Assembly (NCBI RefSeq): GCF_030296615.1
Contig: NZ_AP027732.1
Span: 2,545,042 to 2,609,041 of the forward strand
From: Frondihabitans sucicola
Lineage (GTDB): Bacteria > Actinomycetota > Actinomycetes > Actinomycetales > Microbacteriaceae
Length of the DNA stretch: 64,000 nt
Direction: 5' to 3'
The notes under the pieces were generated by a model. The model was given only the letters and a program-made list of their open reading frames with translations, ran no database searches and was not told the origin of the DNA. Shown in pieces: positions 3,882 through 22,942 of the stretch; positions within the stretch are counted from its first letter, which is position 1, and each line of letters begins with the position of its first letter. Made by a program: the position numbers and the translations under genes.

Positions 3882-4562
3882 ATGAGCATTTCCGAGGTCG
3901 AGGAGGCGCCGGCTCCCGCGGGTGCGCCGACGCCGTTACGACGCGACGCGCGAGAGCGTCGCGAGCGCCTGATCGCGGCGGCTCGGCAGGAGTTCGCCGC
4001 CAGGGGAGTGGATGCGTCGCTCGAGAGGATCGCGCGCGACGCCGGCGTCGCCATCGGGACGCTGTACCGGCACTTTCCGACACGGGTCGATCTCCTCCTC
4101 GCGGCGTTCGAGCCTCGGCTCCAGGAATTTCTCGACAGCGCGGACGACGCCCTCGGTGTCAGTGACCCGTGGGAGTCGTTCGTCTGCTACCTCGAGAATC
4201 TGTTCAGCGTGCAGGCGGGGGATCGCGGTTTCAACGACTTCCTGTCGCGTCGGTTCCCCGGCAGCGCCGAGACCGAACGGATCCACGACCGGATGTGTCT
4301 CCAGATCGGCGACGTGCTGACCAGGGCGCAGGAGGCCGGAGCGGTTCGCTCGGATATCACCCTGGCCGACATCGTCAACCTCATCTGGTCGAACGGCCGC
4401 ATGATCGACGCCACGAGCCAGGCGGCACCCGAGGCCTGGCGCCGGCACCTCTACCTCATGCTCGACGGCTTTCGGGCGTCGGCTGCCCACACCCTGCCCG
4501 AGCCGCCGATGACGGATGCGCAGCTCTACGACGCCATGGTGCGCCTCAGTCAGGCCGACTGA
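3882..4562 (+). CDS. TetR/AcrR family transcriptional regulator
   Basis: N-terminal HTH RERLIAAARQEFAARGVDASLERIARDAGVAIGTLYRHFPTR; divergent from the reductase operon. Confidence 0.85.
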   Translation: MSISEVEEAPAPAGAPTPLRRDARERRERLIAAARQEFAARGVDASLERIARDAGVAIGTLYRHFPTRVDLLLAAFEPRLQEFLDSADDALGVSDPWESFVCYLENLFSVQAGDRGFNDFLSRRFPGSAETERIHDRMCLQIGDVLTRAQEAGAVRSDITLADIVNLIWSNGRMIDATSQAAPEAWRRHLYLMLDGFRASAAHTLPEPPMTDAQLYDAMVRLSQAD

Positions 4563-4634
4563 CTCGCGTCGCCTCCCCGACGATCCCAGAATTCGTCTTA
4601 CTTGACATAATGTGCATTATCAGCGCTCAAGTGT

Positions 4635-4693
4635 CGGGAATTGCATCTAATGCAGGAACTCCCGCTCAACGACCAGGACAACAAAAAGCCAGG
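4635..4693. repeat. left terminal inverted repeat of the element (contains palindrome TGCATctaATGCA)
   Basis: about 55/59 identity with the reverse complement of 23739-23797. Confidence 0.7.
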
Positions 4694-4768
4694 TCGGTGC
4701 CGTATTCGGCTCCCAGTGAATAACTATCAGGGACGCTTCTCTTGCCGTCAGATCCGCATAGGCGTAGG

Positions 4769-4791
4769 TTTCCTGCATTAGATGCAGGAAA
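4769..4791. promoter_or_regulatory. palindrome TTTCCTGCAT-TAG-ATGCAGGAAA just upstream of the integrase gene; shares the GCATCTAATGCAGGAA core with IR-L (likely recombinase binding site/operator)
   Basis: 10-bp perfect arms seen directly; 7 bp upstream of the int start. Confidence 0.45.
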
Positions 4792-4797
4792 CCACGA

Positions 4798-5937
4798 TTG
4801 GAGAACCGGATGGATGGCGAATTTCCGGGCTTTGTCCCGAAGGTCTTGCTTGATCCTTCTATCGCGTTGTTTCGCGCCGAAGACCGCGTATTCGAGGCGA
4901 TGGTTGATGGTTGGACGTCGGAGATGCTGGCTCGTGGCAATCAGGTGTCAACGATCAAGGATCGCGTGAGCTTGCTCAGGCGGTTCCAGTCGTTTACCAA
5001 TGATTACCCGTGGATGTGGGGTCCAGGCGATATCAACGAGTTCGCGGCCGAGCGACTGTCCGGTGAGCGGCCGATCAAGCCCACAACCCTCCGCACCGAC
5101 TCGAATACGATCGCGATGTTCTGCTCTTATGTGTCTAATCCGGCCTACGGCTGGGTGGCCTTTTGCGAACGGACATTCGACTCAATTCCTTCACAAATCG
5201 TGTTCGAGTGGAACAGCCCGCACCACTCGGCCGACGATGCTGTTCCGACAGGCAAACGAGCTTTTACTAAGCCGGAGCTTCAGCTCATCTTCGACTATGT
5301 TGACGACCTCGCAGACAGTGAATATGCCCGTGGGTCCAAGCGCTGGCCGAACTTGCTCCGTGACTCCAATGCATTCAAGATCTGCTATGCCTACGGCCTT
5401 AGACGTCGGGAACTCACCATGCTCGACACTGTCGATTTCGGACCCAATCCATACGTCCCCGATTACGGCATGTTCGGCGCCCTCACCGTGCGTTGGGCCA
5501 AAGGGGTCAAGGGATCGGGTCCACGACGCCGAACGGTACTGACTGTCCCCGAGTTCGACTGGGTGGTCGAGCTAGCCGACAAGTGGATCAGCTCAGAACG
5601 CCGCGGACGTTTCTCTCACGCCGACGGATCGCTCGCCCTTTGGCCGAGTGAGCGGGGTAACCGCATCTCCCTCGGCACATTAGGCGACGCGTTCACCGCA
5701 GCTCGACGCGCCGTCGGCCTACCCGAAGATCTCGGCCTTCATTGCCTCCGGCACTCCTACGTCACGCACCTGCTGGAGGCGAAATATGACCCGCTGTTCG
5801 TTCAGCAGCAGGTCGGGCACGCCTACGCCTCCACCACGAGTCTCTACACCTCGGTGTCCGACAACTTCAAACAGAGAGCGGTCCAGGAAATGATTGCTGC
5901 ACGCGTTCCAGCCAAGACGGAGACTGCCCATGCCTGA
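4798..5937 (+). CDS. tyrosine-type site-specific recombinase/integrase (catalytically intact)
   Basis: C-terminal box II HCLRHSYVTHLLEAKYDPLFVQQQVGHAYASTTSLYTSV (HxLRH...LGH...Y); TTG at 4798 or ATG at 4810; stop overlaps the next start. Confidence 0.85.
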   Translation: MENRMDGEFPGFVPKVLLDPSIALFRAEDRVFEAMVDGWTSEMLARGNQVSTIKDRVSLLRRFQSFTNDYPWMWGPGDINEFAAERLSGERPIKPTTLRTDSNTIAMFCSYVSNPAYGWVAFCERTFDSIPSQIVFEWNSPHHSADDAVPTGKRAFTKPELQLIFDYVDDLADSEYARGSKRWPNLLRDSNAFKICYAYGLRRRELTMLDTVDFGPNPYVPDYGMFGALTVRWAKGVKGSGPRRRTVLTVPEFDWVVELADKWISSERRGRFSHADGSLALWPSERGNRISLGTLGDAFTAARRAVGLPEDLGLHCLRHSYVTHLLEAKYDPLFVQQQVGHAYASTTSLYTSVSDNFKQRAVQEMIAARVPAKTETAHA

Positions 5938-6283
5938 AATCCGCCGAATCGGCTTCCATTGGAAACTCCGTGCCGTCATGGCCCAGCACAACCTCTGGAA
6001 GTCCACCGACCTCATGCCGCTGCTAAAATCGAGGGGCGTGAACCTCTCCGAAAGTCAGATTTATCGACTCGTCACCGGCTCCCCCGAGCGCATTCCCGCA
6101 CGCACTTTCGCGGTACTCTGCGACATCTTCGACTGCACGCCCAATGACCTCTTCGAACCATTTGTCGAGATGCGGGCCGCCGCGACCGCCAACGCGCCAA
6201 AGGACGTCGAGGATTTGACTTCCACGCCGGGACAGCCGCTAACGCACCGGGTGCGTCTGAGCCGCGTCGAAGACGATGAGTAG
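5930..6283 (+). CDS. XRE-family helix-turn-helix DNA-binding protein
   Basis: ATG overlaps the integrase stop (ATGcctGA); KSTDLMPLLKSRGVNLSESQIYRLVTGSPERIPARTFAVLCDIFDCTPNDLFE = HTH_XRE. Confidence 0.7.
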   Translation: MPEIRRIGFHWKLRAVMAQHNLWKSTDLMPLLKSRGVNLSESQIYRLVTGSPERIPARTFAVLCDIFDCTPNDLFEPFVEMRAAATANAPKDVEDLTSTPGQPLTHRVRLSRVEDDE

Positions 6284-6668
6284 GCCAAAGCAGCCCGAGG
6301 ACCCGGAGCGCTTTCCGCTTGCCTGCGCGCGCTGTCATGAGCATCGGGCCCTGGCAGCTTTTTTCGGGACTGAAGGGAGCGTCTGCGTCAACTGCTACAT
6401 GAAAGCCAAGCGCACCCGTGGGGTCTGCGCCTGTGGGCACGAGGGGGTCCTTCCTGGCATGGTTGGGGGGCAGCCGGCGTGCCGAGCATGCAGCGGTGTA
6501 AAGCTCAACATCGACTGCGTCTCATGCGGAACCGAGGACGAACTCTATTCAGGTGGACGGTGCTGGAACTGCACACTCCGTGAAGCCGTGGATTCCGCCC
6601 TGACGAACCCGTCGACCGGCACAATCTCCCCGCGCTTGTCCCCCTGGCGACGGCACTCAAAGGGATGA
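6276..6668 (+). CDS. cysteine-rich (multi-CxxC, zinc-ribbon-like) protein of unknown function
   Basis: 130 aa with CARCHEH, CVNC, CACGH, CRAC, CVSC, CWNC motifs; overlaps both neighbours by a few nt (operon). Confidence 0.45.
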   Translation: MSRPKQPEDPERFPLACARCHEHRALAAFFGTEGSVCVNCYMKAKRTRGVCACGHEGVLPGMVGGQPACRACSGVKLNIDCVSCGTEDELYSGGRCWNCTLREAVDSALTNPSTGTISPRLSPWRRHSKG

Positions 6669-7747
6669 AGAGGGCAAACAGCGGGCTCACCTGGATTAGA
6701 CAGGATCACGTTCAGGCATTCCTCCGCACCCTCGCCACCTCAGACACGATCACTCAGGAGAGCCTTGATGCCCTCCCAAAAACGAAGACGCGCGAATACG
6801 TCCGCGGCCTCCTTGTCGAGCACGGAATCATCGTCACCCGCGACGACTATCTCGTCCGCTACACCGCGTGGTCCAACGAAGCCGTCGAGCGACTCGTCCA
6901 CGCGCCGGATAAAGCTATCGTGGTCCGCTACGTCCGGTGGCAGCACCTACGGCGCATGCAGCAGATGGACGAGGTGACGATCGGCACATTCCTTCGCTCG
7001 AAGCAGACCGTCACGGTTGCCATCGACTTTCTTAACTGGCTACATCATGAGGGAGTGCTCTTCGCGGACGTCCGTCAAGCGCATCTCGACGAGTGGATTA
7101 ACACTGGACCTTCGACACGAAAGATCGCCAATCGATTCCTTCGTTGGGCTATCAAGACCCGTCTCGTAAAGCCCGACTTGACAATTGCACCGCACCGGCG
7201 TGGCACGGCCGAGCGACTGGATGCTTCGGCTCAAGGAGCCGCCCTTGAACGCGTCGTCCATACCGACGAGCTGGCGCCCCGTGAGCGAATAGCGGCGACG
7301 CTCGTCCTCGTCTTCGGCCAGCAGGTTCGAGACATCGTGACCCTTACCTGGGACCGGGTGCGCATCGAAGACGGTCTCGTCACAATTCGCATGGGCGGGT
7401 TCGACATCGACCTCCCGGCTCCCCTCGACGAGCCATGGCGGCAGCTTGCGGCCCACTCGCCGAACATGCAGACCGCGGCCCACCCGCATAGCTCTTGGGT
7501 CTTCCCCGGGACCAAGCCCGGCTATCACGTCAACCCGAGTCACATGCGGAACCGGCTAAAGCAATACTTCAGCGCACGCGCCGCGCGCCTTGGTACCCTC
7601 CACGAACTCTCCAAACTCGGCCCGATCCCTGTGATCGCCGACGCACTCGGCTATCGGCCGCAAACCATTGAGGCTCACGCAAAAGACTCCGCCTCCGCCT
7701 ACGCCCGCTATGTCGCGTCGATTCGCAGTGAAGACCAGCCAGATTGA
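6665..7747 (+). CDS. tyrosine recombinase-like protein, probably catalytically degenerate
   Basis: N-terminal SAM-like core-binding domain (QAHLDEWI...), catalytic-domain start ...GQQVRDIVTLTWDRVRIEDGLVTIR...DLPAPL, but box II reads HELSKLG...LGYRP...YARY (conserved Arg replaced by Ser, His by Tyr). Confidence 0.55.
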   Translation: MKRANSGLTWIRQDHVQAFLRTLATSDTITQESLDALPKTKTREYVRGLLVEHGIIVTRDDYLVRYTAWSNEAVERLVHAPDKAIVVRYVRWQHLRRMQQMDEVTIGTFLRSKQTVTVAIDFLNWLHHEGVLFADVRQAHLDEWINTGPSTRKIANRFLRWAIKTRLVKPDLTIAPHRRGTAERLDASAQGAALERVVHTDELAPRERIAATLVLVFGQQVRDIVTLTWDRVRIEDGLVTIRMGGFDIDLPAPLDEPWRQLAAHSPNMQTAAHPHSSWVFPGTKPGYHVNPSHMRNRLKQYFSARAARLGTLHELSKLGPIPVIADALGYRPQTIEAHAKDSASAYARYVASIRSEDQPD

Positions 7748-7833
7748 GGGCTTGATTCATGCAGGCTTGTGGATTTCCTCGCGCTGCCTATTTGAATCTC
7801 TCCCTCATCCCGACACCAAGGCTCGGTCGGCTC

Positions 7834-9649
7834 TCAGCTGAGTCCCGCTTCCAGCCGAATACGGGCAAGATCCCTATGCTCGGGTATCCCGGTGATTGAC
7901 CATGGCTCCGGAACGACAAGGTCATTTTTTAGAAGTTCAGAACTATAGATCCGGAACGGGGTTCCATCCATGGGCTCCAGTCTGATATTCATGCCCTTTG
8001 CCGTGCCGCCCAAGAGTCGCCTTCGCACCTCGTCGGCATCCGCGATTTTCATCCTTGGGTGAAAAATGTTTGGTTCGGGTATTAAGACTGGATTGTCCAG
8101 CACGTTGACGCCTGAACCTTCTCCCCGGAAACGCTCCGGTTTAAGATGGCACCTCCCGCGTCCAGCAAGACCATCAGGCCCTCGTCCATTGAGCCGCTGA
8201 GAGTGGCTTTCATCGAAGAATAGTTAGGGATGAGGGCGCATTTTCCTTCCAGCAGCATCCGTGCGATCCGCGTCCAAATACGCTCCGCAGCCTCAGGCAA
8301 CTCCTGCGGAAAAGCGAAGGTCACATCGCCCAACTTCTCGATCACAGACAAGTCCTCGGCATACTCGCTCAATTTTGGGTCAGCCGCTCTTAGGTCTGCC
8401 CCCTGTGGGAGCGCCGCGCTGACCGACTTTCCACTCAGGGTGAGCCGGAGTCGTTGAGCCCGAGGAAGGGTGTCCATAAAGCGAACTACCCGGTTGACGG
8501 CCACGCCGGACCGTCCCACAGCATCAAAGGTCATGTCTGTGGAACCAGAAAGGCTGTCTCGTGGGAAGCGCCAGAACATTGAAAGGACTTCTTCGAAGGA
8601 CACCTCGATAAAGCCGCCTTCCGTGCCGTTCCCCACATCGGTGCTCGTGCCAGTAAGCCCGCCAAGGTGCGTGCCGTCAGCGGCGTATGAGTCGATGCGG
8701 GCTGGTTCACCTTGGTGAGCGTCACGAACGGGGATTACCGAGACTGCATAGCCGCTCTCCGTCCCCGAAAACCAGTCGGCCGGCCCGTCATAGACCAGTG
8801 AATGGACGTTCTGCTCCGGCAAGTCGAGACGCGTGCCCCGTCCGTAGCCGAACACATCTTTCGTCAGTTTTGCCAGTTCCGCATCCTCACGGCCGAACAA
8901 CATGTTGACCGTGATCGACAGCGGTTCCATGTCCGCTGCGTCTTCCCTCTTCGCGTACAATTCCCACCCTGGCAATCCGTCGACGACAGCCAGTCGGCGA
9001 CCCCAGTACAGGCTGAAAGTGTTCTGGTCGGCAATGTACCGAGCTAGCCCGTCGTGGGCCTCTTGAAGAGTTCTAGGTGCTGCATCCTTATGGCCAATCC
9101 TTGAAAGGGCCAAGTCCACCGCGCTGCGCACGCTCCAGTCTTGGACGTCGGGATGTTTGGCGAGGAGTCTGTCCAGCTCAACGGAGCCAAGAATGTGAGT
9201 TCGAATCGAGGTGCCATCGCTCAGCTTCGAAACCCACTTTTGTTCGGCGTCCGTAAACTCTTCTGGCACCACCAAGGTCCAGTCCGGCATGCCCAGGGCT
9301 GTCGCTGTCGTGAACGACTTCTTGATTTGCTTGCGTCGACTGTCACGCCAGCCCCCGAAAAGCCTTCAGGGAAATGCTTCAGTTGAAACACATGGACGAC
9401 TGAACCAGATGTCTTGTCCCGAAAGACGATGTCGATGCCGCCGTCACCGCCGCGGCCGCTGGGTGCCGAAGCGGCGTATCCGAGGGCGTCACCGTCACGA
9501 GTGATAAGCACGTTCACGATTCGCTCGAAGTCCTCGCGGGAAATTGTCCGCCACTGAACTTTTTCGACCACGGACTCTCCCCCATTGCAGCACTGCGTCA
9601 ATCGTATCGGCGCCAACGCACTGACCAGGGACGAGACGAAATGCCTCAC
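7834..9649 (-). CDS. Mrr-like PD-(D/E)xK restriction-endonuclease N-terminal domain fused to a ~450-aa domain of unknown function; two apparent single-base frameshifts (~9354 in a G6/C6 run, ~8106)
   Basis: N-terminus ...SREDFERIVNVLITRDGDALGYAASAPSGRGGDGGIDIVFRDKTSGSVVHVFQLKHF (D-GGIDIV...QLK = Mrr catalytic motif); three successive frames join into one ~600-aa protein if one base is restored at each junction; lower GC than surroundings. Confidence 0.5.
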
Positions 9650-9832
9650 CCTGACGAGGAGGCAGACGCGTCTCCGCGAGATGGAGAACGCTGTTCCGTA
9701 CGTCGCACTGGCGCGATCGCAGCACGTCGCTCAGTTGTCGTTGGCATTTCGTCGCAGCCGGCGATTTGACTCCGCCGCTGTCACCCAAGCGGCGATCCTT
9801 CAAAGCGCATTCTTAGGCGAGGGGCGTCGTTC

Positions 9833-10351
9833 CTAGTTGGTTCCGGTGACGGTGCTGCGGCGTTCGAGGAAGACGTTGTCTCGCCACTGTCCTGCCCACG
9901 GGCCGAAGCTCATCCGCCCAATGCGTTCCCGGATGCCGACCTCTCGGAATCCGTGGGCGGCATGAAGGGCGAGGCTTCCGCGGTTCTCGGGGAAGACCGC
10001 GGATTGAATCATCCAGACTCCCGCTGCTTCGGATGTGGTGATGAATTCCGCCAGGAGCAGGTGGCCAACCCCGGCACCGCGGGCGTTCTTGGAGACATAG
10101 ATGGAGTGCTCGATGACCCCCTGATACACCGGCCGCGACGACACGCTCGACGCGGCCGCCCACCCGACGACGTTGTCCTGCGTGTCCACGGCGACGAGTC
10201 GGAGTCCTCGAATTTTTCCGCCATCGAACTCCTCCCAGGACGGAGGCTTGTCCTGGAAGGTCGCGTTACCCGACGCGATGCCCTCGGCGTAAATCCGTTC
10301 GACGGCAGGCCAGTCGCCCGCCTTCATCGCACGGATCGTCACCTCGGTCAT
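9833..10351 (-). CDS. GNAT family N-acetyltransferase (phosphinothricin acetyltransferase-like)
   Basis: MTEVTIRAMKAGDWPAVERIYAEGIASGNATFQ...RGAGVGHLLL; ATG 10349-10351. Confidence 0.8.
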   Translation of the reverse strand: MTEVTIRAMKAGDWPAVERIYAEGIASGNATFQDKPPSWEEFDGGKIRGLRLVAVDTQDNVVGWAAASSVSSRPVYQGVIEHSIYVSKNARGAGVGHLLLAEFITTSEAAGVWMIQSAVFPENRGSLALHAAHGFREVGIRERIGRMSFGPWAGQWRDNVFLERRSTVTGTN

Positions 10352-10697
10352 GCCGGGTTGAGGGTCCGACTGCTGGCGGTGAGGGCGGCGAAGTCGGCAC
10401 GGTAGTACGCCCATTTGCCGCGCTGTTCGCGGATGGCAAGGCCGGCGTCGACGAGCTGCTTCATGTGATGCGACACCGTGGGCTGCGACAGCCCGACCGG
10501 TGCCGTGAGGTCACAGATGCAGGCTTCCCCGTAGGGCTTGCCGCGATGAGTGACAGGAGCCGCACTCGGGTGGGATCGCCGAGCGCCTTGAACACCTTGG
10601 CGACGTCTTCCGCTGCGGACGCCGTGAGGGCGTCCTCACTGGTCGGGGCGCAGCACGCCGCGTCGGTGGGCGCGAGAAGCGAGGCACTGGTGGTCAT
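10348..10697 (-). CDS. arsR: ArsR/SmtB family metalloregulator (apparent single-base frameshift ~10543)
   Basis: MTTSASLLAPTDAACCAPTSEDALTASAAEDVAKVFKALGDPTRVRLLSLIAA then +1 frame GKPYGEACICDLTAPVGLSQPTVSHHMKQLVDAGLAIREQRGKWAYYRAD; stop overlaps the GNAT start (ATGA). Confidence 0.7.
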
Positions 10698-10721
10698 GGC
10701 CTCATTCTGCCAGTCGCATTG

Positions 10722-10760
10722 ACATCTGTCGATGTATCGAGCACAGTCGATGTATTGATT
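10722..10760. promoter_or_regulatory. repeated 12-13 bp near-palindromes (GTCGATGTATCGA / GTCGATGTATTGA) in the divergent arsR / arsO promoter region; candidate ArsR operator
   Basis: seen directly between starts at 10697 (-) and 10785 (+). Confidence 0.4.
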
Positions 10761-10784
10761 GTTGTCGATCCGAGGAGTTTTCCC

Positions 10785-12101
10785 GTGTCTGATCTTCCCG
10801 TTGTCGTCATCGGCGCCGGCCCGCAGGGCCTTGCCGCTGCCGCCCACCTTCTCGAACGTGGCCTTGACCCCCTGGTACTCGAAGCTGGCGACGGCCCGGC
10901 GGCCGCTGTGAATGAGTGGGGCCACGTCCGGCTGTTTTCGGACTGGTCAGAACTCGTCGACACCACGGCCGGCCGGCTGCTTGAAGGAACCGGATGGACG
11001 GCTCCGGCGAAGGGCTACCCGACCGGAGCGCAGTGGATCAGCCGCTACCTCTCGCCTCTCGCTGAGGCGTTGGGTGACCGGGTGCGGTACGGCACCACCG
11101 TGACTGGTATCGGTCGGCAGGGCCGTGACCGGCTGGTGGATGCGGGCCGAAGCGAGCAGCCCTTCACCGTTCACGTCAACGCCGGCGGGACCGAGGAACG
11201 CATCACCGCTCGTGCTGTCATCGACGCGTCGGGAACCTGGTCGACCCCGAACCCGCTGGGCGCCGACGGTCTCCCCGCCCTCGGCGAGAAGGCAGCGGCC
11301 GCGTTCATCTCCGATCGCATCCCTGACTTCCACGACCATGACCGGTTCGCCGGCAAACACACGGTCGTCGTGGGCAGTGGGCACTCCGCGGCGACCGCGA
11401 TCAACGAACTCACCCGCGTCGCCAAACAGCACCCCGATACCCGCATCACATGGGTCCTTCGTCGAGGTGGCGTTGGGAACACATTCGGTGGCGGCACGGC
11501 CGACGAGCTGCCCGAGCGCGGAGCCCTCGGCGCTCGTGCGCAGAAGTCCGTCGAGGCGGGGATCGTGGATCTCGTCACCGGGTTCCGCGTCGAACGAATC
11601 AACACCACCGACACCGGCGCCGTCCTCATCTCCGAAGACGGACGCGCCCTGCCCGAGGCAGACCTCGTCGTCGCCCTGACCGGGTTCCGACCCGACCTGT
11701 CGTTCCTGTCGGAGGTGCGCCTCGAGCTGGATGCCACGTTGCAGGCACCCATCCGAATCGCGGCGGAGGTCGACCCCAACGTACATAGCTGCGGGTCCGT
11801 CCGAGCCACCGGAGCTGCGGACCTGGCACAACCGGAACAGGATTTCTACCTCGTCGGCGCGAAGTCCTACGGCCGCGCGCCCACGTTCCTGGCGATGACC
11901 GGATACGAGCAGATCCGCAGCGTCGTCGCGGAACTGGCCGGCGACCACGAGGCCGCCGCCCGCATCGACCTCATCCTCCCTGACACCGGCGTGTGTGGCG
12001 GGGCAGGGTTGTTCGACGACCCCACCGGCGCCAGAGGCGGCGCCTGCTGCGCCCCTGCATCGACACTTCTGCAGATCGGCCGTGCCCCCGTCACCGCTTG
12101 A
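10785..12101 (+). CDS. FAD/NAD(P)-binding oxidoreductase (ArsO-like flavin monooxygenase family found in actinobacterial ars clusters)
   Basis: GTG start 8 nt after a GAGGAG RBS; VVVIGAGPQGLAAAAHLLERG dinucleotide-binding motif, second GxGxxA (VVVGSGHSAATAI). Confidence 0.65.
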   Translation: MSDLPVVVIGAGPQGLAAAAHLLERGLDPLVLEAGDGPAAAVNEWGHVRLFSDWSELVDTTAGRLLEGTGWTAPAKGYPTGAQWISRYLSPLAEALGDRVRYGTTVTGIGRQGRDRLVDAGRSEQPFTVHVNAGGTEERITARAVIDASGTWSTPNPLGADGLPALGEKAAAAFISDRIPDFHDHDRFAGKHTVVVGSGHSAATAINELTRVAKQHPDTRITWVLRRGGVGNTFGGGTADELPERGALGARAQKSVEAGIVDLVTGFRVERINTTDTGAVLISEDGRALPEADLVVALTGFRPDLSFLSEVRLELDATLQAPIRIAAEVDPNVHSCGSVRATGAADLAQPEQDFYLVGAKSYGRAPTFLAMTGYEQIRSVVAELAGDHEAAARIDLILPDTGVCGGAGLFDDPTGARGGACCAPASTLLQIGRAPVTA

Positions 12102-12116
12102 GCGAACCAGTCGCCG

Positions 12117-12791
12117 CTAGGCGGGGGCGAGACGGGGCGCAAGTTCCTGGATGCGGTGTTCGAGGTCCGTGAAAGCGGCCTCGAATGCCGCATCCGTGCC
12201 CAGACGGACAGGGTCGGGGATCGACCAGTGCAGCCCGGACGGGACGGAGAGTTCCTCATGGGCGTTGTCGCAGACCGTGACCACGAAGTCATCCGGCGCG
12301 AGAACGTCAGAGAGCATTTGCGGGGTGGCCTCTTGCAGGTTCAGGTGGTGCCGCTTCGCTGCCCGGATAGCGCCCGGTTCGACGCGCTCGGCGGGGTGAG
12401 TTCCCCCGGATGCGGCAGGGATACTGCTGGCGCTGGCCCACAGCGCTGCGGCGAGCTGTGACCGGGCGGAGTTCCCGGTGCAAACGAACACAACCCGGTG
12501 GCCGGCGACCGAGGATGTCGGAGTCAGCCCCGACAAGGAACCTGGGGCGAGGTGGAGATAGCTGCGCCTGCGGTCGCCCTCTGACCGGACCCGAACCAGA
12601 ATGCCCACGCCTTCCAGCACCTTCAGGTGATGCGCCACGAGGTTCGAGGGCATGCCGAGCTGCTGGCTCATGTCGGTCGGGGAGACATCCCCAAGGGTTA
12701 ACAGGTCGACGATCCGTAGGCGTGCCGGATCGGCCAGGGCGGCATGTTTCGCAGCCCGCGCCTCGATCATCTCTGTTAGCTCAGCGTTCAT
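12117..12791 (-). CDS. arsC: ArsR HTH fused to LMW-PTP-type arsenate reductase (ArsR-ArsC fusion)
   Basis: N-terminus RLRIVDLLTLGDVSPTDMSQQLGMPSNLVAHHLKVLEGVGIL (ArsR HTH); C-terminus VVFVCTGNSARSQLAAALW (CX5R P-loop of LMW phosphatase/ArsC). Confidence 0.8.
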   Translation of the reverse strand: MNAELTEMIEARAAKHAALADPARLRIVDLLTLGDVSPTDMSQQLGMPSNLVAHHLKVLEGVGILVRVRSEGDRRRSYLHLAPGSLSGLTPTSSVAGHRVVFVCTGNSARSQLAAALWASASSIPAASGGTHPAERVEPGAIRAAKRHHLNLQEATPQMLSDVLAPDDFVVTVCDNAHEELSVPSGLHWSIPDPVRLGTDAAFEAAFTDLEHRIQELAPRLAPA

Positions 12792-12831
12792 TACCTCAAT
12801 CTTGACTGAGGTACCGTCTTGGCGTCAAGAT

Positions 12832-13587
12832 GTGCAAGTGCCCTTCTTGACCCCGATCCCACGCACCGATCTCCTGCGCCGCCTGCTGGCGGAGCTGCTC
12901 GGGACGGCTCTTCTGGTGACGGTCGTTGTCGGTTCGGGGATCATGGCCCAGCAGCTCAGCCCGCGCGACGTCGGGCTGCAACTGCTGGAGAACAGCCTCG
13001 CTACCGCTTTCGGCCTGACGGTTCTGATCCTGATGCTCGGTCCGATCTCGGGGGCGCACTTCAACCCGGTGGTCACGCTGGCGGACTGGGCTCTTGGCCG
13101 TCGCACCCGCACCGGGCTCCGTTCAGCGATGGTCCTTCCCTACGTTGTCGCGCAGGTCGTTGGGGCGATCCTCGGAGCAGTCCTGGCGAACACCATGTTC
13201 GACACCCGCACGACCATCGCAACCACGCACCGCGCCACTGGCGGGCATCTCCTCGGGGAGATCGTCGCCACGGCAGGGCTGATCCTGGTGATCTTTGCCC
13301 TCGCACGCACCGGCCGCGGGGCCCTGGCTGCTCCTGCGGTCGGGGCGTACATCGGGGCGGCGTATTGGTTCACCAGCTCGACTTCGTTCGCGAACCCTGC
13401 CGTGACCATCGGCCGGATCTTCACCGACACCTTCGCCGGCATCGCCCCCACCTCCGCCCCCGCCTTCATCGGCGTCCAGCTGGTGGGAGCCGCGGTCGGC
13501 TGTGCCCTGCTTCTCGTTCTCTATCCCGACGTCGCCCGGTCCGCCGACGACGTCGTCATCCCGCACCTCGACCAGGCGTCCGCCTGA
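12832..13587 (+). CDS. aquaporin/aquaglyceroporin (MIP family) arsenite channel
   Basis: two NPA boxes (SGAHFNPVVT and SFANPAVT); six TM helices; GTG start after the divergent arsRC start. Confidence 0.8.
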   Translation: MQVPFLTPIPRTDLLRRLLAELLGTALLVTVVVGSGIMAQQLSPRDVGLQLLENSLATAFGLTVLILMLGPISGAHFNPVVTLADWALGRRTRTGLRSAMVLPYVVAQVVGAILGAVLANTMFDTRTTIATTHRATGGHLLGEIVATAGLILVIFALARTGRGALAAPAVGAYIGAAYWFTSSTSFANPAVTIGRIFTDTFAGIAPTSAPAFIGVQLVGAAVGCALLLVLYPDVARSADDVVIPHLDQASA

Positions 13588-13608
13588 CCCGCCCCGAAAG
13601 GCCCTCTC

Positions 13609-14991
13609 ATGCATCTCGTTGCCATCGGCGGATCGGACGCCGGCATCTCCGCCGCCCTCCGCGCCCGCGAACTCGACCCGTCCGTAGACGTGACCGTGGT
13701 CGTCGCGGACGCTTACCCGAACTTCTCCATCTGCGGGATTCCGTACTTCTTCTCCCGCGAAGTGCAGCCCTGGCAGTCCCTCGCTCACCGCACCCATGCC
13801 GACCTCGAAGCGACCGGGATGAACCTCCGGTTGGAGACGTTCGCGACGTCGATCGACGTCGTAGGTCACCGCCTCGCCGTCCGCGCCCTCGACGGCACCG
13901 GATCCCTCATCGCCTACGACGCCCTCATGGTCGGCACCGGGGCGCTGCCCTCCCGCGCCGGCATCGACGGCCTCGACATCCTGGGGCCGGACGACGGGGT
14001 GCACGTCATCCACTCCATGGGCGACACCTTCGCCCTCGACCGGTTCCTCGAGACCCGGAACCCTGAGACCGCGATCATCGTCGGCGCCGGCTACGTGGGC
14101 CTTGAAATGGCGGAAGCGTTCACCGTCCGCGGCATCAAGACGACCCAGATTCAGCGCGGTCCGGAAGTGCTCTCCACCCTCGACCCCGAACTCGGCGCCC
14201 TCGTTCACACTGAACTCACCGACCACGGCGTCACCGTCCTCACGGACACCATCGTGAACCGCATCGACAAAACCGGCGACAGCCTCACCGTCAGCGCCAC
14301 CCACCAGGGCACCCCCGTCACCCACACGGCCGACGTTGTCCTGGTTGTCGTCGGGGTCCGCCCGAACACGGACCTCCTCGAGCGCGCCGGCGCGACGCTT
14401 GGTGCTGGCCGGGCGGTCGTCGTCGACGACACGATGCGGACGGGTCTTCCCGACGTGTTCGCGGCCGGTGACGGGGTCACCACCCACCACCGCCTCCTCG
14501 GCTTGACGTATCTCCCTCTCGGGACGACGGCTCACAAGCAGGGCCGCGTCGCCGGCGAGAACGCCCTCGGTGGCACCGCCCGGTTCGCGGGATCCGTCGG
14601 CACTCAGGTCGTGAAAGTGTTCGACCTCGTCGCCTCCCGGACCGGCCTTCGCGAACACGAAGCCGCCGCTGCCGGGTTCGCCCCCGTCAGCACGACCGCG
14701 ATCGCGGATGACCACAAGAAGTACTACCCGGGCGCGCAACCGATCTCGATCCGCGTCACCGGCGACAGCCGCGACGGCAAACTCCTCGGCGCTCAGCTCG
14801 TCGGCCGTCTTGGCACCGAGACCGCCAAACGCGTCGACACGTACGCCGTCGCCTTGCACGCCGGCCTCACCGTGGAGCAGGTCAGCGAACTCGACCTCTC
14901 CTACACACCACCGCTCGGTTCCCCGTGGGACGCGGTGCAGATCGCCACCCAGGCATGGTCCCGCGAGCACCGCCAGGCGGTGACCGCATGA
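13609..14991 (+). CDS. FAD-dependent pyridine nucleotide-disulfide oxidoreductase (NADH oxidase / CoA-disulfide reductase-like)
   Basis: MHLVAIGGSDAGISAAL...IIVGAGYVGLEMAEAF...AAGDGV; 460 aa two-Rossmann architecture. Confidence 0.75.
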   Translation: MHLVAIGGSDAGISAALRARELDPSVDVTVVVADAYPNFSICGIPYFFSREVQPWQSLAHRTHADLEATGMNLRLETFATSIDVVGHRLAVRALDGTGSLIAYDALMVGTGALPSRAGIDGLDILGPDDGVHVIHSMGDTFALDRFLETRNPETAIIVGAGYVGLEMAEAFTVRGIKTTQIQRGPEVLSTLDPELGALVHTELTDHGVTVLTDTIVNRIDKTGDSLTVSATHQGTPVTHTADVVLVVVGVRPNTDLLERAGATLGAGRAVVVDDTMRTGLPDVFAAGDGVTTHHRLLGLTYLPLGTTAHKQGRVAGENALGGTARFAGSVGTQVVKVFDLVASRTGLREHEAAAAGFAPVSTTAIADDHKKYYPGAQPISIRVTGDSRDGKLLGAQLVGRLGTETAKRVDTYAVALHAGLTVEQVSELDLSYTPPLGSPWDAVQIATQAWSREHRQAVTA

Positions 14992-15380
14992 CCGACAAGC
15001 CCACCGTCTTGTTCATCTGCCAGCACAACGCCGGCCGCTCCCAACTCGGCGCAGCCCTCCTCGAACACCTCGCCGGAAACGACTACACGGTCACCTCAGC
15101 GGGGATCGCGCCCGACAAGACAGTGAACCCGGCCGTCGCGGCGAGTATCGCGGAGCTGGGGATGGACATCAGCCAGCGGGAACCGCGGGCCGTCACCGTC
15201 ACCGACCTCCAAGAGGCCGACGTCGTCGTCCTCATGAAGCCTGGCCTAGTCTTGCCGAGCACGCCCGCGGGACGGGTGTTGGAGTGGTCCTTCCCGAATC
15301 CGGAGAACTGGGACGTGGACTCCGTCCGGCCCTTGAGGGAAGCGGTCGCGGCGCGCATCACCTCCGACCTGTTCGCCTGA
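14988..15380 (+). CDS. arsC: arsenate reductase, LMW protein-tyrosine-phosphatase family
   Basis: MTDKPTVLFICQHNAGRSQLGAALLE (CX5R); ATGA overlap with the upstream gene. Confidence 0.8.
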   Translation: MTDKPTVLFICQHNAGRSQLGAALLEHLAGNDYTVTSAGIAPDKTVNPAVAASIAELGMDISQREPRAVTVTDLQEADVVVLMKPGLVLPSTPAGRVLEWSFPNPENWDVDSVRPLREAVAARITSDLFA

Positions 15381-15400
15381 CGCTATGACCTGGAGGGGAG

Positions 15401-16069
15401 CTAGTCGTCCTCTTCCGCTTCGCGTTCACCGGTCAGCACGGATACGGGAACGGTGCAGCTGTCGCCCTTCCATGCCTCGACGCCTTCTTTGACGGCGAAG
15501 CCGACGACGACGAGGGCTGCGATGGGGTCGGCCCAGGTCCACCCGAACAAGCTGTTGAGCAGGAGCCCGACGAGGACCGCCGCGGACAGGTAGGCGCAGA
15601 TGAGGGTCTGTTTGGAGTCGGCGATCGCGGACGCCGATCCCAGTTCTCGTCCGGTGCGGCGTTCGGCAAGGCTCAGGGCAGGCATGATCAGCAAGCTGAT
15701 GACGGTGAGGACGATGCCGATGGGGCTGTGCTCGGCCTGACGGACGCCTGTTAGCGACAGGGCGGCGTCGATGGTGACGTAGATCGCGAGAGCAAAGAAC
15801 GAAATTGCGATGACGCGGAGGGCGGTCCGCTCCCTGGCCTCGGGATCGCGGGCGGTGAATTGCCAGGCGATTGCCGCGGCGGAGAGGACTTCGACGATGG
15901 AATCTAGGCCGAAGCCGACGAGGGCTGCGGAGGAGGCCATGGTACCGGCGGTGATCGCGACGACCGCCTCGATGGCGTTGTAGGTGATGGTCGCCGCGAC
16001 GATCAGCCGTATCCGGCGGCGTAAGATCCGGGTACGAGGCGGGACAGCGAGGGCTTCGGTGCTGGTCAT
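15401..16069 (-). CDS. cation diffusion facilitator-like membrane protein (short form lacking the cytoplasmic domain)
   Basis: TM protein with LVGFGLDSIVEV, ADSKQT, WADPIAALVV motifs typical of the CDF TM core; ATG overlaps the upstream CDF stop. Confidence 0.6.
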   Translation of the reverse strand: MTSTEALAVPPRTRILRRRIRLIVAATITYNAIEAVVAITAGTMASSAALVGFGLDSIVEVLSAAAIAWQFTARDPEARERTALRVIAISFFALAIYVTIDAALSLTGVRQAEHSPIGIVLTVISLLIMPALSLAERRTGRELGSASAIADSKQTLICAYLSAAVLVGLLLNSLFGWTWADPIAALVVVGFAVKEGVEAWKGDSCTVPVSVLTGEREAEEDD

Positions 16070-16998
16070 GCGTGGTCCGTTCCGGGTTCGTGGGCGGTGT
16101 GGCCGGCGGGTTCGAGTTGGAAGGTGCTGTGCTCGACGTCGAAATGGCCGACCAGGCACGCTTGCAGTTCGTCGAGGACTCGGGGTGCGTGGCCGTCCTG
16201 GAAGCACTCGTCCGTCAGGGTCACGTGCGCTGACAGGGCGGGGAGGTCCGAGGTGACGGTCCACGCGTGGAGGTCGTGGATTGCGAGAACGTGGGCGGGT
16301 TCGAGTAGGTGCCCTCGGATGGCGTCAAGGTCCACACCTTCTGGGGTGCCCTCGAGGAGGATGCGGCCGGAGTCTTTCAGCAGCCCCCACGCCGCATGCA
16401 GCATCAAGACCACAACGATCAGGGAGGCGATGGAGTCGGCGCGGGTGAAGCCGGTGACGAGGATGACGATCCCGGCGACGACGGTGGCGATGAACCCATA
16501 CAGGTCGGTGAGGATGTGCTGGAAGGACCCTTCGACGTTCAGGCTCTGACGGTTGGCTTTCGCTAGCACCCACACGGCGACGAGGTTCACGGCCACTCCG
16601 AGGAGCGCGACGACGAGGACCGGGCCGCCTTCGACCTCGGGTGGGTCGAGGAGGCGTCGGATGGCTTCGACGGCGACGATGCCACTGATGACGACGAGGG
16701 TGACGCCATTCACCGCGGCGGAGAGGATCTCGGCGCGCTTCAGCCCGAATGTCCACCTTGAGCTGCTGGGGCGGGCAGCGAGTCGGATCGCGACGAGCGA
16801 CCCGGCGAGGGCGGCGGCGTCGGTGAGCATGTGACCGGCGTCCGAGAGCAGTGCCAGCGAGCCGGAGATGATGGCGACGATGACCTCGATGAGGAGGAAA
16901 CCGACGATCAGGGCCAGGGCGATGCTGAGGAGCCGGGTGTTCGCGTCGGGGGCGGCCCCGTGGCTGTGTGCTTTGTCGTGCTGGTGGGTGTCGGTCAC
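16066..16998 (-). CDS. cation diffusion facilitator (CDF) family metal efflux transporter (CzcD/ZitB-like)
   Basis: His-rich N-terminus THQHDKAHSHG, LLSDAGHMLTDAAALAGSL, C-terminal cytoplasmic domain; GTG start overlaps the regulator stop (GTGA). Confidence 0.8.
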   Translation of the reverse strand: MTDTHQHDKAHSHGAAPDANTRLLSIALALIVGFLLIEVIVAIISGSLALLSDAGHMLTDAAALAGSLVAIRLAARPSSSRWTFGLKRAEILSAAVNGVTLVVISGIVAVEAIRRLLDPPEVEGGPVLVVALLGVAVNLVAVWVLAKANRQSLNVEGSFQHILTDLYGFIATVVAGIVILVTGFTRADSIASLIVVVLMLHAAWGLLKDSGRILLEGTPEGVDLDAIRGHLLEPAHVLAIHDLHAWTVTSDLPALSAHVTLTDECFQDGHAPRVLDELQACLVGHFDVEHSTFQLEPAGHTAHEPGTDHA

Positions 16999-17400
16999 TG
17001 GTCGGTTCCGGTGGTCTCGGGGTGGATCGCGACCGTGTGACCGGTGTGGGTGAGCCCGAGGTCGAGGAGCATCCGGACGTGGCCGTCGTCGAGGCGGTAG
17101 TACGCCATCCGCCCACGACGTGCGACCGACACCACCCGGTGCGCCCGAAGGAGCCGGAGTGCGTGACTGACAGAGCTTTCGCTCATCGCCGTTGTCGCCG
17201 CGAGATCGCACACACATCTCACCGCCTTCGAGAAGAGACATCAGAAGGCGAAGCCGGCCTGGGTCGCCGAGAAGAGAGAACACGTCCGCCAGCTCGACGA
17301 CGTCTTCCGCGTCGGGCAGGCTGCGTCGAACCAGGTCGACCTTGTCCGGGTCGACCATCTTCAGCTCGCAACTATCGATGCTCGCCAGATCGCTCGCCAT
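16995..17400 (-). CDS. ArsR/SmtB family metalloregulator (NmtR/KmtR/CzrA-like) with a 2-bp frameshift inside a (TG)n run at ~17213
   Basis: DVFSLLGDPGRLRLLMSLLEGGEMCV then CDLAATTAMSESSVSHALRLLRAHRVVSVARRGRMAYYRLDDGHVRMLLDLGLTHTGHTVAIHPETTG; restoring TG in ATGTGTGTG(TG)CGAT joins the frames. Confidence 0.7.
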
Positions 17401-17533
17401 GCCGACTCCTCATCTGATCACTTGTTCAGATGACCGTAACAGGCCGACGAGCCCTAGTCACGCAGCCGCCCCTTGCAGGTCAGTCTGAATTCATGTCACA
17501 ATGGTCCTGCGCTTTTAGCGCGTGAAAAACAGC

Positions 17534-17560
17534 CGGCCCTTGGGTCGGTTTTTTTGTGCC
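17534..17560 (+). terminator. intrinsic-terminator-like hairpin plus U7 (CCGGCCC-UUG-GGUCGG-UUUUUUU) with no protein gene upstream on this strand
   Basis: seen directly; 7-bp stem with one G.U pair then T7. Confidence 0.4.
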
Positions 17561-17726
17561 CGAAAACGGTCGCCTCTTTGCGCCATCGGTCAGCACACCC
17601 ACCGCGAGGCCACCGCACCGGCGGCACCTCGCTGTTCTCGCCCGCGAGAAACATCAGCCTCGGACCCGCACGCCGCGAGGTTCGTGAGCCGACCCCTGGG
17701 TCGGCAGCATCAACGGTGGAGGTTCC

Positions 17727-17900
17727 ATGCTCCAGCTGTCGATTGAGATCCCTGCTGCCGCGGGCTACGCAATCGGATTCGCCGTCGCAACAGGCATCAT
17801 CGCGACCGCCATCCGTACCGCGTGGCCCGTGCTGAACGACAAGGCTGCACGCCGCGTCGCTCGCATGCACCGGGCGAAAGCCGCTCGCAAGAGCGACTAG
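17727..17900 (+). CDS. small hydrophobic protein (57 aa), hypothetical
   Basis: GGAGG 6 nt upstream of ATG; MLQLSIEIPAAAGYAIGFAVATGIIATAIRTAWPVLNDKAARRVARMHRAKAARKSD (one TM helix + basic tail); below the ORF-track size cutoff. Confidence 0.35.
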   Translation: MLQLSIEIPAAAGYAIGFAVATGIIATAIRTAWPVLNDKAARRVARMHRAKAARKSD

Positions 17901-18070
17901 CTCAAAAAACGCACCCCTCCATCGTTAAGGAGAGCTCTGTCTTCAGGTGTGCAACAAACGACCGTCCACGAGACAGTCACGCAGAGCTGCTCAAGAGTCG
18001 GCGCGTCATGTCCCATGGCCCGTGTCCGCGACCTATGTTCCGTAAGACACGTTCGAGGTACAGTTCTGCC

Positions 18071-18637
18071 ATGGCATCCGTCGGCTACGCCCGCGTCTCC
18101 ACCCAAGAGCAGAACCTCGACGCACAAACGGACGCCCTCGAGGCGGCCGCCTGCGACAAGGTGTTCGTCGAGCATGCCTCCGGGGTTCTCGCGAAACGGC
18201 CCGCCCTGGATGATGCCCTCGACTACCTCCGCGAAGGCGACACTCTAGTCGTCACGAAACTCGACCGACTCGGCCGCTCCGTCCGGAACCTGAAAGAGAT
18301 CGCTAACGGACTCGAGCGCCGCGGCGTTGGCCTCAGAGCCCTGTCGCAGGGCATCGACACGACCACCCCCGGCGGCCGGCTGTTCTTCCACATGCTCGCG
18401 GCCATTGCGGAGTTCGAGCACGACCTCATCGTCGAACGCACGAAGGACGGTTTAGCTGCCGCCCGAGCCCGCGGCCGAAAAGGCGGCGGGCGTTCAAAGA
18501 TGACCGCCACGAAAGCCAAGCAGGCCCGAGCGATGTACGACGAGAAGACCTATACCGTCCAGCAGATTGCTGACACCTTCGGCGTCTCACGCGGCACCAT
18601 CTACCGGCACCTCGAAGAAGACATCAGCTCCATTTAG
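18071..18637 (+). CDS. serine recombinase (resolvase/invertase, Hin/Gin/Pin family)
   Basis: MASVGYARVSTQEQNLDAQTDALE... catalytic Ser in YARVST; C-terminal HTH YTVQQIADTFGVSRGTIYRHL. Confidence 0.85.
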   Translation: MASVGYARVSTQEQNLDAQTDALEAAACDKVFVEHASGVLAKRPALDDALDYLREGDTLVVTKLDRLGRSVRNLKEIANGLERRGVGLRALSQGIDTTTPGGRLFFHMLAAIAEFEHDLIVERTKDGLAAARARGRKGGGRSKMTATKAKQARAMYDEKTYTVQQIADTFGVSRGTIYRHLEEDISSI

Positions 18638-18715
18638 CCCGAGGACCGCTCCACATCACGAGCGTCCGCGAAGGCCTTAAGTGGGTTCCGCTTGAGTGCC
18701 CTAGTGGGTCCGAGA

Positions 18716-18772
18716 CACTTTGACATAGTCGTCTTTCGCTTCACGTTCACCCGTCAGCACGGACACAGGTCC
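18716..18772 (-). pseudogene. 3'-terminal remnant (~17 codons) of a paralogue of the short CDF gene 15401-16069
   Basis: translates MPLGPVSVLTGEREAKDDY..., matching the ...CTVPVSVLTGEREAEEDD end of 15401-16069; nucleotide similarity to 15404-15460; upstream part replaced by lower-GC DNA. Confidence 0.5.
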
Positions 18773-18864
18773 AAGCGGCATGAAAAACACACATCGAGAG
18801 ACAAGCGGGAACCGGCCAATCGACGTGGCAATCCTGCGGGCTATCCATATCTGGACTTACGACA

Positions 18865-19974: not shown

Positions 19975-19975
19975 C

Positions 19976-20773
19976 TCATCCCCACCTCCAGTGGAGCGTT
20001 TCTAGTTCAAGAACGCCGATATTTCCCGGTCGTTCATCGGGCGCCATGGAATAGACGCGACGGCCGTCTTCGAGGGTTGCTTCGGCTCGGCTGTGGATGT
20101 GGCCGTGGAACAGGATGCCAGGGTGGATGGCATTCCACAGGTCTGTTGTTCGGGAGCGCGAGATGGCGGACGCCCAGAGTCGGTCCGCTGGCCATCTGCC
20201 GGGGTTCCGTCCTTCCTCGATGCCTGCCGTCGCTTCGGTGGCGCCGTTGACGGCCTCGTGAGTGAGCATGATGTCTGCCGGGCCCGATAGAGCGGCCTCC
20301 GCGTACGCTTCTTTGCGGGCGACCTCGTCTGGCCACCAATCGCGGTTTTTTCCGTGAGCATTTCGCCGGTGCCGATCTACCGACGCCGCTCCCCCGAACG
20401 ACATGAACGTGCGCCCTCCGATCACGAAACGGTATCCGTGTGGCAGGACCCAGATGTGCTGACCGATCCGAACGGGCTCTCGTCGCACCCATGCAGGTGT
20501 GCTTCTAAGGCGGCCATAGTCTTCATGGTTTCCGGGGGTAATGAGAACTTGCTCGATCCCATTGCCGCGGCACCGGGCGTCGACCATGTTCACGAAAGCC
20601 TTGGCGACGCGACCTCGCCCGATGTTGAAATCGCCCAATTGCAAGATCGTCTTCGCCCCTGGCGCCATCTGTGCGGCGCGAGGGATGACCTTCATGGCCC
20701 AGATGATGTTGCTGTGCCAATCTCCCGCCACGACCACGCGCGGATCCGCCGCGTCGGGAACCCACGCGGTCAT
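19976..20773 (-). CDS. calcineurin-like metallophosphoesterase
   Basis: VVVAGDWHSN, GDFN, ITPGNHE, FHGHIH motifs; stop overlaps the upstream gene. Confidence 0.75.
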   Translation of the reverse strand: MTAWVPDAADPRVVVAGDWHSNIIWAMKVIPRAAQMAPGAKTILQLGDFNIGRGRVAKAFVNMVDARCRGNGIEQVLITPGNHEDYGRLRSTPAWVRREPVRIGQHIWVLPHGYRFVIGGRTFMSFGGAASVDRHRRNAHGKNRDWWPDEVARKEAYAEAALSGPADIMLTHEAVNGATEATAGIEEGRNPGRWPADRLWASAISRSRTTDLWNAIHPGILFHGHIHSRAEATLEDGRRVYSMAPDERPGNIGVLELETLHWRWG

Positions 20774-22847: not shown

Positions 22848-22861
22848 GCCATCAAATTAGT

Positions 22862-22877: not shown

Positions 22878-22942
22878 TGCCATGGCTAGAGTTGCGGAAG
22901 TCTTGGACGGTGCCAAATTCTGGATCTGAGAACTTCGAGGCC

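Follow-up and report, generated by a model that had tools for sequence, protein, structure and literature searches.

A stretch of the Frondihabitans sucicola chromosome, positions 4798-7747 of the 64-kb window that we analysed (all coordinates are window positions), is likely to be the mobility operon of an integrative element or transposon, 19.2 kb long and non-conjugative, with cargo genes for resistance to arsenic and metals. The operon appears to consist of three genes, here called A, B and CD, which encode a tyrosine recombinase, a helix-turn-helix protein of the XRE type and a large protein that combines Cys-rich motifs with a degenerate recombinase fold. The element is a member of a distinct short-form subfamily within a known and experimentally untouched kind of actinobacterial element. 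An earlier note on this DNA had considered the module by itself and had counted four genes in it; the module is in fact part of the 19-kb element, whose features are collected in Table 1.

Table 1. Positions of the element, its genes and its sites, with frameshifted genes nearby and reversed modules of related loci
Feature	Position	Strand	Length	Description
Element	4599-23825		19,227 bp	Module at left end, one module only
L30 (TACTTGACATAATGTGCATTATCAGCGC...)	4599-4634	+		Dyad ATAATG-TG-CATTAT; family-wide conservation starts here
Left arm, sub-terminal inverted repeat	4635-4697	+	63 nt	Contains CGGGAATTGCATCTAATGCAGGAACTCCCG, hairpin-like, and an operator-like half-site
Palindrome GGTTTCCTGCAT-TAG-ATGCAGGAAACC	4767-4793	+		Perfect 12-3-12; 17 nt before the likely start ATG of A
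Gene A	4798-5937	+	379 aa, counted from TTG 4798	Predicted catalytic tyrosine recombinase
Gene B	5930-6283 (ORF from 5894/5930)	+	117 aa	XRE/Cro-type helix-turn-helix
Gene CD	6276-7747	+		Read as one gene; -1 frameshift in C-run 6628-6631 splits ORF3/ORF4
ORF3	6276-6668	+	130 aa	Cys-rich
ORF4	6665-7747	+	360 aa	Recombinase-like
Cargo	7748-23735		~16 kb	Pfam and PADLOC scans
Frameshifted Mrr-like gene	~8110 and ~9300			Inside element
Frameshifted ArsR gene	~10560			Inside element
Frameshifted SmtB gene	~17180			Inside element
Right arm, sub-terminal inverted repeat	23736-23798	+	63 nt	90% complementary to left arm
Right-end motif ACTCCCGGCTCCCGAACAGCGGCTCCTGCCAGTA	23792-23825	+	34 nt	Right terminus 23825
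Class-II glutamine amidotransferase	24300-25120			Chromosomal, two frameshifts; outside element
Head-to-head second modules in loci L022, L027, L028, L033, L042, L046, L052 and L079	~5000-8100 of each locus	-		Other side of L30

Gene content of the recombination module

Four overlapping open reading frames (ORFs) lie on the plus strand, as the earlier note had recorded. Genes A and B overlap by 8 nt (ATGCCTGA), as do B and the third ORF (ATGAGTAG). Both overlaps recur among the 80 related loci that were found by scanning one genome per species (A/B in 51 loci, B/CD in 62 of 73). The product of gene A matches the Pfam family Phage_integrase above its cut-off (3.7e-17); in NCBIfam it has only distant Xer-type matches. 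Its residues R202, K235, H315, R318, H341 and Y350 are invariant in an alignment of 10 family members, so the full active-site signature that had been noticed earlier is complete (R-K-H-R-H-Y), and the protein is by sequence a canonical tyrosine recombinase. The likely true start of A is ATG 4810, with GGAG six bases before it. Gene B matches HTH_26 (3.4e-14) and is classified by its sequence as an XRE-type helix-turn-helix protein. ORF3 has no credible family in Pfam, ORF4 matches Phage_integrase below threshold (23.7 bits, cut-off 27.1), and NCBIfam, PADLOC and Pfam together offer no family for the partners of B or for CD beyond weak matches.

Comparison with homologues indicates that ORF3 and ORF4 are one gene, CD. 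Upstream of position 6665 the frame of ORF4 reads PALVPLATALKGMKRANSG, colinear with PELVPLADALKSMKRANSG in the homologues, and colinearity persists across this position (PALVPLATALKG-MKRANSG in the window, PELVPLADALKS-MKRANSG in the homologues). ORF3 falls out of register after GTISP, which affects its last 13 residues. One C added to the C-run at 6628-6631 yields a 490-aa protein that is 56-63% identical to 33 homologues over its full length, and in 78 of 79 related loci the C and D parts lie in one frame. The module is accordingly read as three genes, and the previous count of four is abandoned, along with the 4-nt ATGA overlap of ORF3 and ORF4 as a junction between genes; the overlaps of 8 nt that the same claim had covered do stand. 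Nearly all other CD homologues are 485-492 aa long, with N-termini that match ORF3 and a remainder that matches ORF4, and M131, the start Met of ORF4, corresponds to an invariant internal residue in them.

What would speak for four separate, translationally coupled genes, with a free-standing 130-aa zinc-ribbon protein and a 360-aa degenerate recombinase, is that ATGA resembles a coupled stop/start, that a few database homologues measure about 360-390 aa, and that the closest database match to ORF4 is an identical 360-aa 'hypothetical protein' annotated in the deposited genome of Frondihabitans sucicola. We give this arrangement hardly any credence: homology runs on upstream of the supposed start, a single base restores the full protein, and the assembly carries many other frameshifts. 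At least six more lie within ~21 kb, and because some of them fall in a gene outside the element, we read the CD split as most likely an assembly indel error. The frameshift could also be genuine, which would weigh against a functional operon and make this copy a dead, immobile relic with degrading cargo. Frameshifts in the arsR, smtB and Mrr-like cargo genes, the last in two places, agree with such decay, but the two in the chromosomal amidotransferase gene fit assembly-wide indels better than the decay of an island, and A, B and CD are otherwise well conserved, with neither stops nor deletions. A relic is thus an unlikely explanation beside an assembly error. In an indel-prone assembly, what looks like an ATGA 'overlap' can be a frameshift, and ORF-level readings of this window need care, as its assembly looks indel-prone.

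The N-terminal part of CD contains six CxxC/CxC pairs whose 12 Cys residues are invariant or nearly so family-wide, and is predicted to form three Cys4-type (Zn-ribbon-type) sites. The six pairs and the zinc ribbon proposed earlier, there as CxxC/CxxH, are retained in this form, as the N-terminal domain of CD and not as a separate 130-aa protein. An AlphaFold2 (AF2) model built from a 101-sequence alignment (predicted local distance difference test, pLDDT, 95) contains the two domains of a tyrosine recombinase, core-binding and catalytic. This run superseded one on 34 close homologues in which the C-terminal 57 residues had a pLDDT below 50. The model and the residue alignments by hidden Markov model (HMM) bear out the proposal of a recombinase fold with a non-canonical active site. 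Searching PDB sequences with the CD family profile returned nothing meaningful.

CD lacks the complete set of Arg-I, hairpin Lys, His-I/Arg-II, His/Trp-III and Tyr. HMM alignment places Arg-I (Cre R173, XerD R148) at position 350, which is P in 55%, Q in 15% and H in 8% of the family, and the hairpin Lys (Cre K201) at position 377, where there is no Lys. The AF2 helices near the C-terminus span residues 434-445, 451-458 and 462-486, and their register puts His-I at R435 (R in 59%) and, together with a weak sub-HMM alignment, Arg-II (Cre R292) at R438 (R in 94%), so that box II of the model falls on R435-A-A-R438. His/Trp-III (Cre W315) would correspond to Y460 (Y in 39%, also L/I) by a weak sub-HMM alignment and by the match of IPVIADALGY460 to IPEIMQAGGW315 in the checked Cre sequence. 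The Tyr nucleophile (XerD Y279; Cre Y324 by register) would correspond to A469 (A in 57%) by weak sub-HMM alignment and helix register. Arg-I, the hairpin Lys, the His residues and the canonical Tyr are therefore predicted to be substituted family-wide, His/Trp-III only partly, and Arg-II is probably retained as R438. The earlier note had read box II as HELS, with both Arg and His replaced. Loss of the His is upheld, loss of the Arg is not, and the HELS register is probably displaced by one helix turn or more, given the helix register, the resemblance to the Cre motif and the weak sub-HMM alignments. An hhalign comparison of CD with the A family (probability 0.5, weak) favoured the HELS register and was set aside in favour of these three lines of evidence.

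Some of the conservation in CD is odd for a purely non-catalytic protein. Y479, ten residues downstream of A469, is conserved in 97% of the family, 80% have H/W at position 468, and R438 may be added to these; at position 353, 66% of the family have R. The register from box II to Tyr, which covers the last 60 residues, moreover derives from AF2 helix register and weak alignments without superposition. These points count against a degenerate CD and would suit an active, non-canonical recombinase with Y479 as its nucleophile on the long C-terminal helix, possibly acting in trans as in Flp. R438, the R353 of the family and H/W468 would then complete the pocket, giving two catalytic subunits as in Tn554 and the SE elements, and in the hhalign register H/W468 followed by a Tyr 11 residues on recalls the spacing from His/Trp-III to Tyr. 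Such activity seems to us rather unlikely, because the canonical Arg-I position holds P, Q or H and the hairpin Lys is missing throughout the family, because the subfamily of the window has Asp at 353, because the canonical Tyr position is Ala, and because Tfp and GinC are precedents for non-catalytic proteins with this fold (PMC10214605). CD as a degenerate recombinase paralogue is the reading that we prefer.

Homologues of CD of ~490 aa are widely annotated as 'Fis family transcriptional regulator' or as 'hypothetical'; domain and fold analyses give the Fis label no support. In some genomes, for example on pASPHE302, CD is called with an internal start.

Distribution, ends and cargo of the element

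The 80 related loci are almost all from Actinomycetota (Arthrobacter, Paenarthrobacter, Sinomonas, Nocardioides, Kribbella, Rhodococcus, Gordonia, Dietzia, Pseudonocardia and others), and essentially all keep the order A-B-CD, with A at the head of the module. The neighbourhood search that the earlier note had recommended thus recovers its gene order widely, as three genes. Plasmid records with a relative of CD number 250, among them 104 of Streptomyces, 56 of Rhodococcus and 26 of Arthrobacter, and an exhaustive CD profile search returned 4149 clusters at 50% identity (E<=1e-3), 956 of them at E<=1e-30. The proteins fall into a short class of ~490 aa and a long class of 640-845 aa with extra N-terminal Cys repeats.

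Several observations suggest that modules of this type move. Many matches are whole contigs of 3.4-3.9 kb, as expected of collapsed multi-copy repeats. A chromosomal scaffold of Arthrobacter silvisoli (L006) and plasmid pASPHE302 of P. phenanthrenivorans Sphe3 (L081), which has an intact minimal copy at 4328-7935, are 98% identical over exactly 3.6 kb. A filled and an empty site are available for a more distantly related element of 7,548 bp, which lies between umuD and umuC in plasmid pA2H2; the same site is intact in pA58H3, and comparison of the two plasmids reveals no target duplication around the insertion. At locus L017, a decayed second module copy with several frameshifts (8087-10884) directly follows the right end of an intact one, which suggests repeated insertion at the same site, the older copy degrading.

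We place the element of the window at 4599-23825 on the basis of its inverted repeat, its right-end motif, the end offsets of the family and a shift in GC content. The right-end motif, ACTCCCG-N-GCCAGT(T/A), terminates collapsed repeat contigs and elements in ~45 loci and has a single match in the 64-kb window. Its distance from CD ranges from 70 nt to 16 kb in related loci; a right end was sought within 1.5 kb of CD in the window, where there is none, and was found at 23.8 kb. In 22 relatives an inverted (A)CGGGAGT(AG) of 7-13 nt lies ~36-37 nt from the left terminus and ~27-28 nt from the right, and the 63-nt repeat of the window begins at the same offsets. GC content is 0.59-0.62 at 4-10 kb and 17-24 kb and 0.68-0.71 in the flanks. 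A classical integrase-type island was considered and rejected: there is no tRNA or tmRNA gene in positions 1-30000 and no flanking direct repeat beyond the 7-nt CGATCCC, which is of doubtful meaning.

At its left end the element abuts L30, a dyad that is probably an attachment or target core belonging to the target, with elements inserting on either side of it. The core ACATAA-N6-TTATC occurs once in the window, and in 49 module-bearing loci it is found once per locus, always on the plus strand and ~200 nt upstream of A. We assign it to the target because it diverges between copies (at ~5 of 25 positions where the copies are otherwise 98% identical), because collapsed repeat contigs start just after it and yet include the right terminus, because it is absent from junctions, and because it lies between head-to-head modules. 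The junctions come from ~10 loci in which a right end is followed directly by left-end-like sequence without L30, observed as GCCAGTT|AAAG. Simple tandem copies were considered as the source of the left-end-like sequence and dismissed on account of these L30-less junctions. Eight loci have a further module, diverged from the first (30-40% identity) and arranged head-to-head with it on the other side of L30 (Table 1).

The L30 of the window recurs, identical over 29-31 nt, in two further genomes of Frondihabitans whose occupancy differs. One, a metagenome-assembled genome, has only a reversed, diverged module to the left of L30 (L087, 5220-8124). The other, Frondihabitans sp. PAMC 28766, has a solitary 31-nt copy in a low-GC intergenic region (L085, 7895-7925). 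The sequence available to the right of this copy, 0.7 kb, contains no recombinase module, so that 'empty' is provisional; the copy may be an unoccupied or vacated attachment site. Two further roles for L30 were rejected, that of a promoter, for which a consensus scan found nothing, and that of its spacer as crossover region, which does not fit the GCCAGTT|AAAG junctions.

Between L30 and gene A, the palindrome at 4767-4793 is a presumed operator that would suit a DNA-binding protein acting as a dimer, for which B is the simplest candidate. In relatives, the palindromes found in this place co-vary in both arms between subfamilies (TCCTGCAT/ATGCAGGA, TCTCTCAT/ATGAGAGA, TCGTGCAT/ATGCACGA), and related half-sites are present in both sub-terminal repeats. 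A perfect 17-nt inverted pair (4642-4658 and 4770-4786) flanks 111 nt just upstream of A. In front of a tyrosine recombinase gene this is reminiscent of fimS, and the module could be imagined as a local inversion or resolution system, for example one that flips the 111-bp segment as a promoter switch, with no part in mobility. That is very improbable: in relatives the central triplets of the two sites are in direct orientation or unrelated, a palindromic operator has no intrinsic polarity, and the module moves with conserved ends and variable cargo through many genomic contexts. Since relatives do not keep the inverted orientation, the pair more likely reflects repeated binding sites.

Several points weigh against the element as we describe it. 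Neither a circular form nor an empty site was seen for the copy in the window, and its left boundary (4599 or ~4628-4634) is deduced from comparison. Binding of B to the palindrome follows from position and covariation only, a consensus scan found no sigma-70-like promoter, and there is no experiment on any member of this element type.

The cargo includes an arsenic and metal cluster at 9833-17400 that encodes a GNAT protein, an FAD oxidoreductase, an ArsR-ArsC fusion, a MIP channel, a pyridine-nucleotide disulfide oxidoreductase, ArsC and two CDF efflux proteins with ArsR/SmtB regulators. On the minus strand at 7834-9649, overlapping ORFs of 142, 402 and 89 aa resemble one gene of ~630 aa with an N-terminal Mrr_cat restriction-endonuclease domain and a weak match to LmuA, a Lamassu effector. 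This split Mrr/LmuA-like gene may be defence cargo. The region 17400-23700 is a second low-GC block (0.60-0.62) with a serine resolvase (17822-18637), a metallophosphoesterase, several winged and other helix-turn-helix proteins, and ORFs of 369, 242 and 232 aa without a family. This block might represent an element nested within the larger one, or else an uncharacterised system.

Relation to described elements

The closest described counterparts are the 'XER modules' of the Antarctic Arthrobacter plasmids pA2H2, pA8H1 and pA40H2, which were reported as putative novel integrative elements in which 4-14 cargo genes accompany a XerD-like recombinase, an XRE regulator and a 'XerC' (Romaniuk et al. 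2018, PMC6305408). The third gene received its name without analysis of active sites, ends or targets (PMC6305408). The core has the same three genes in the same order and orientation as in the window, and by BLASTP the pA2H2 proteins are homologous to ours (A 38%, 1.6e-86; B 40%, 4e-24; CD 24.5% over 493 aa, 9e-33). Both have a discrete block of variable cargo, 16 kb in the window and part of a 7,548-bp block in pA2H2, and both have a palindrome just upstream of the recombinase gene. They differ in the third protein, which in pA2H2 has 828 aa with extra Zn-ribbon repeats and in the window 490 aa, in the end sequences (GGTGCTATT repeats) and in the cargo, which in pA2H2 is tellurium resistance. 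The suggestion in the earlier note that the architecture may define a distinct family has therefore been overtaken by the XER modules. Our search of the literature after 2018 found no later work on this element type. The pA2H2 palindrome itself (L083, 5003-5041) is a perfect 16-7-16 repeat, TCTCCCGTCTAATGCA-GGAATAG-TGCATTAGACGGGAGA, immediately before the recombinase gene, and unites the motifs CTCCCG and TAATGCA, which stand apart from each other in the family of the window.

An earlier survey of Actinobacteria had listed 'Tn554-related' couples, Famint36/41, in which a short recombinase is joined by an abnormally long one (611-828 aa) and TnpC is lacking (Van Houdt et al. 2012, PMC3414803). 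These share hosts with the present family (Rhodococcus, Arthrobacter, Nocardioides and Streptomyces plasmids), in both a recombinase of ~350 aa is paired with a long one, and the upper length of the long one, 828 aa, is that of the third pA2H2 protein. For the long protein that paper describes a possible catalytic motif; it makes no mention of an XRE gene (PMC3414803). By description only, the couples and the present family probably belong to the same superfamily.

Strand-biased circularizing integrative elements (SE elements, intA-tfp-intB-srap) and GInts (ginABCD), both reported only in Gamma- and Betaproteobacteria, resemble the element of the window in having a left-end recombination operon of overlapping genes, variable cargo and a conserved right end, and in being non-conjugative (PMC10214605, PMC5385486). 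They pair a fold protein that lacks RHRY (Tfp, GinC) with a small accessory DNA-binding protein, a likeness to the window in concept only. They have two catalytic recombinases, which in SE elements flank Tfp, against one in the window, and they lack a Zn-ribbon domain. No sequence relationship to SE elements or the gamma-mobile-trio was detected: in NCBIfam, gene A scores 13.6 bits against GmtY, which we assumed to represent SE elements (cut-off 340), and B and CD have no match. GInts, compared by description, have three integrase-fold genes and a small helix-loop-helix gene, all essential, whereas the window has two integrase-fold genes.

RIT elements consist of three adjacent tyrosine recombinases, ritA, ritB and ritC, each with a catalytic motif. 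They recall the window in that their three genes overlap and run in one direction, and in their long terminal inverted repeats, but in the window the middle gene is of the HTH_26 type and the third is degenerate. Tn554 carries two RHRY recombinases, tnpA and tnpB, followed by the small tnpC, and has a site preference without target duplication. It is likewise a three-gene tyrosine-recombinase transposon, and the clean insertion in pA2H2 matches its lack of duplication. Compared by description, it has no HTH_26 gene between its recombinases and no Cys-rich domain, whereas the window has both, and only one canonical recombinase. The architecture is thus unlike that of RIT and Tn554, a contrast drawn already in the earlier note, and both fail on gene content.

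Proposed mechanism and significance

In the mechanism that we propose, the product of gene A would cleave DNA and exchange strands, and CD would be its DNA-binding partner on the second half-site of each core, as Tfp is in SE elements and GinC in GInts, with its Zn-ribbons contributing sequence recognition. B would bind the palindromic operator and the sub-terminal half-sites, control expression and possibly influence directionality. The element would leave as a circle in which the right end is joined to the left sub-terminal site (junction GCCAGTT|AAAGTACGGGAG), and the circle would enter beside the dyad core of L30, which would stay with the target and remain open to occupancy on either side.

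These steps can be joined, tentatively and with more doubt than confidence, into a very large class of cargo-carrying transposons of Actinomycetota that combine one catalytic recombinase, a degenerate Zn-ribbon paralogue and an XRE protein, dock beside L30 and perhaps exchange a single pair of strands. L30 would be a landing pad open to elements on its left, on its right or on both sides at once, and this would account for the head-to-head pairs. After the exchange of that one pair of strands the product might be resolved by replication, by analogy with SE elements and with CTX-phi, which integrates by XerC alone. If true, this class would be a Gram-positive counterpart of the SE and GInt elements, independently arrived at.

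The element type is found on hundreds of actinobacterial plasmids and chromosomes. Here it would mobilise resistance to arsenic and metals; tellurium resistance is the cargo of published relatives. Its largest protein is mislabelled in databases, so that annotation pipelines and finders of mobile genetic elements miss it, and such islands could be delimited automatically by recognising their three-gene core, end motifs and dyad core. The family may offer a natural case, outside Proteobacteria, of an active recombinase with a degenerate paralogue, and the points of most interest are the role of that Zn-ribbon paralogue and the landing-pad behaviour of the L30 dyad.

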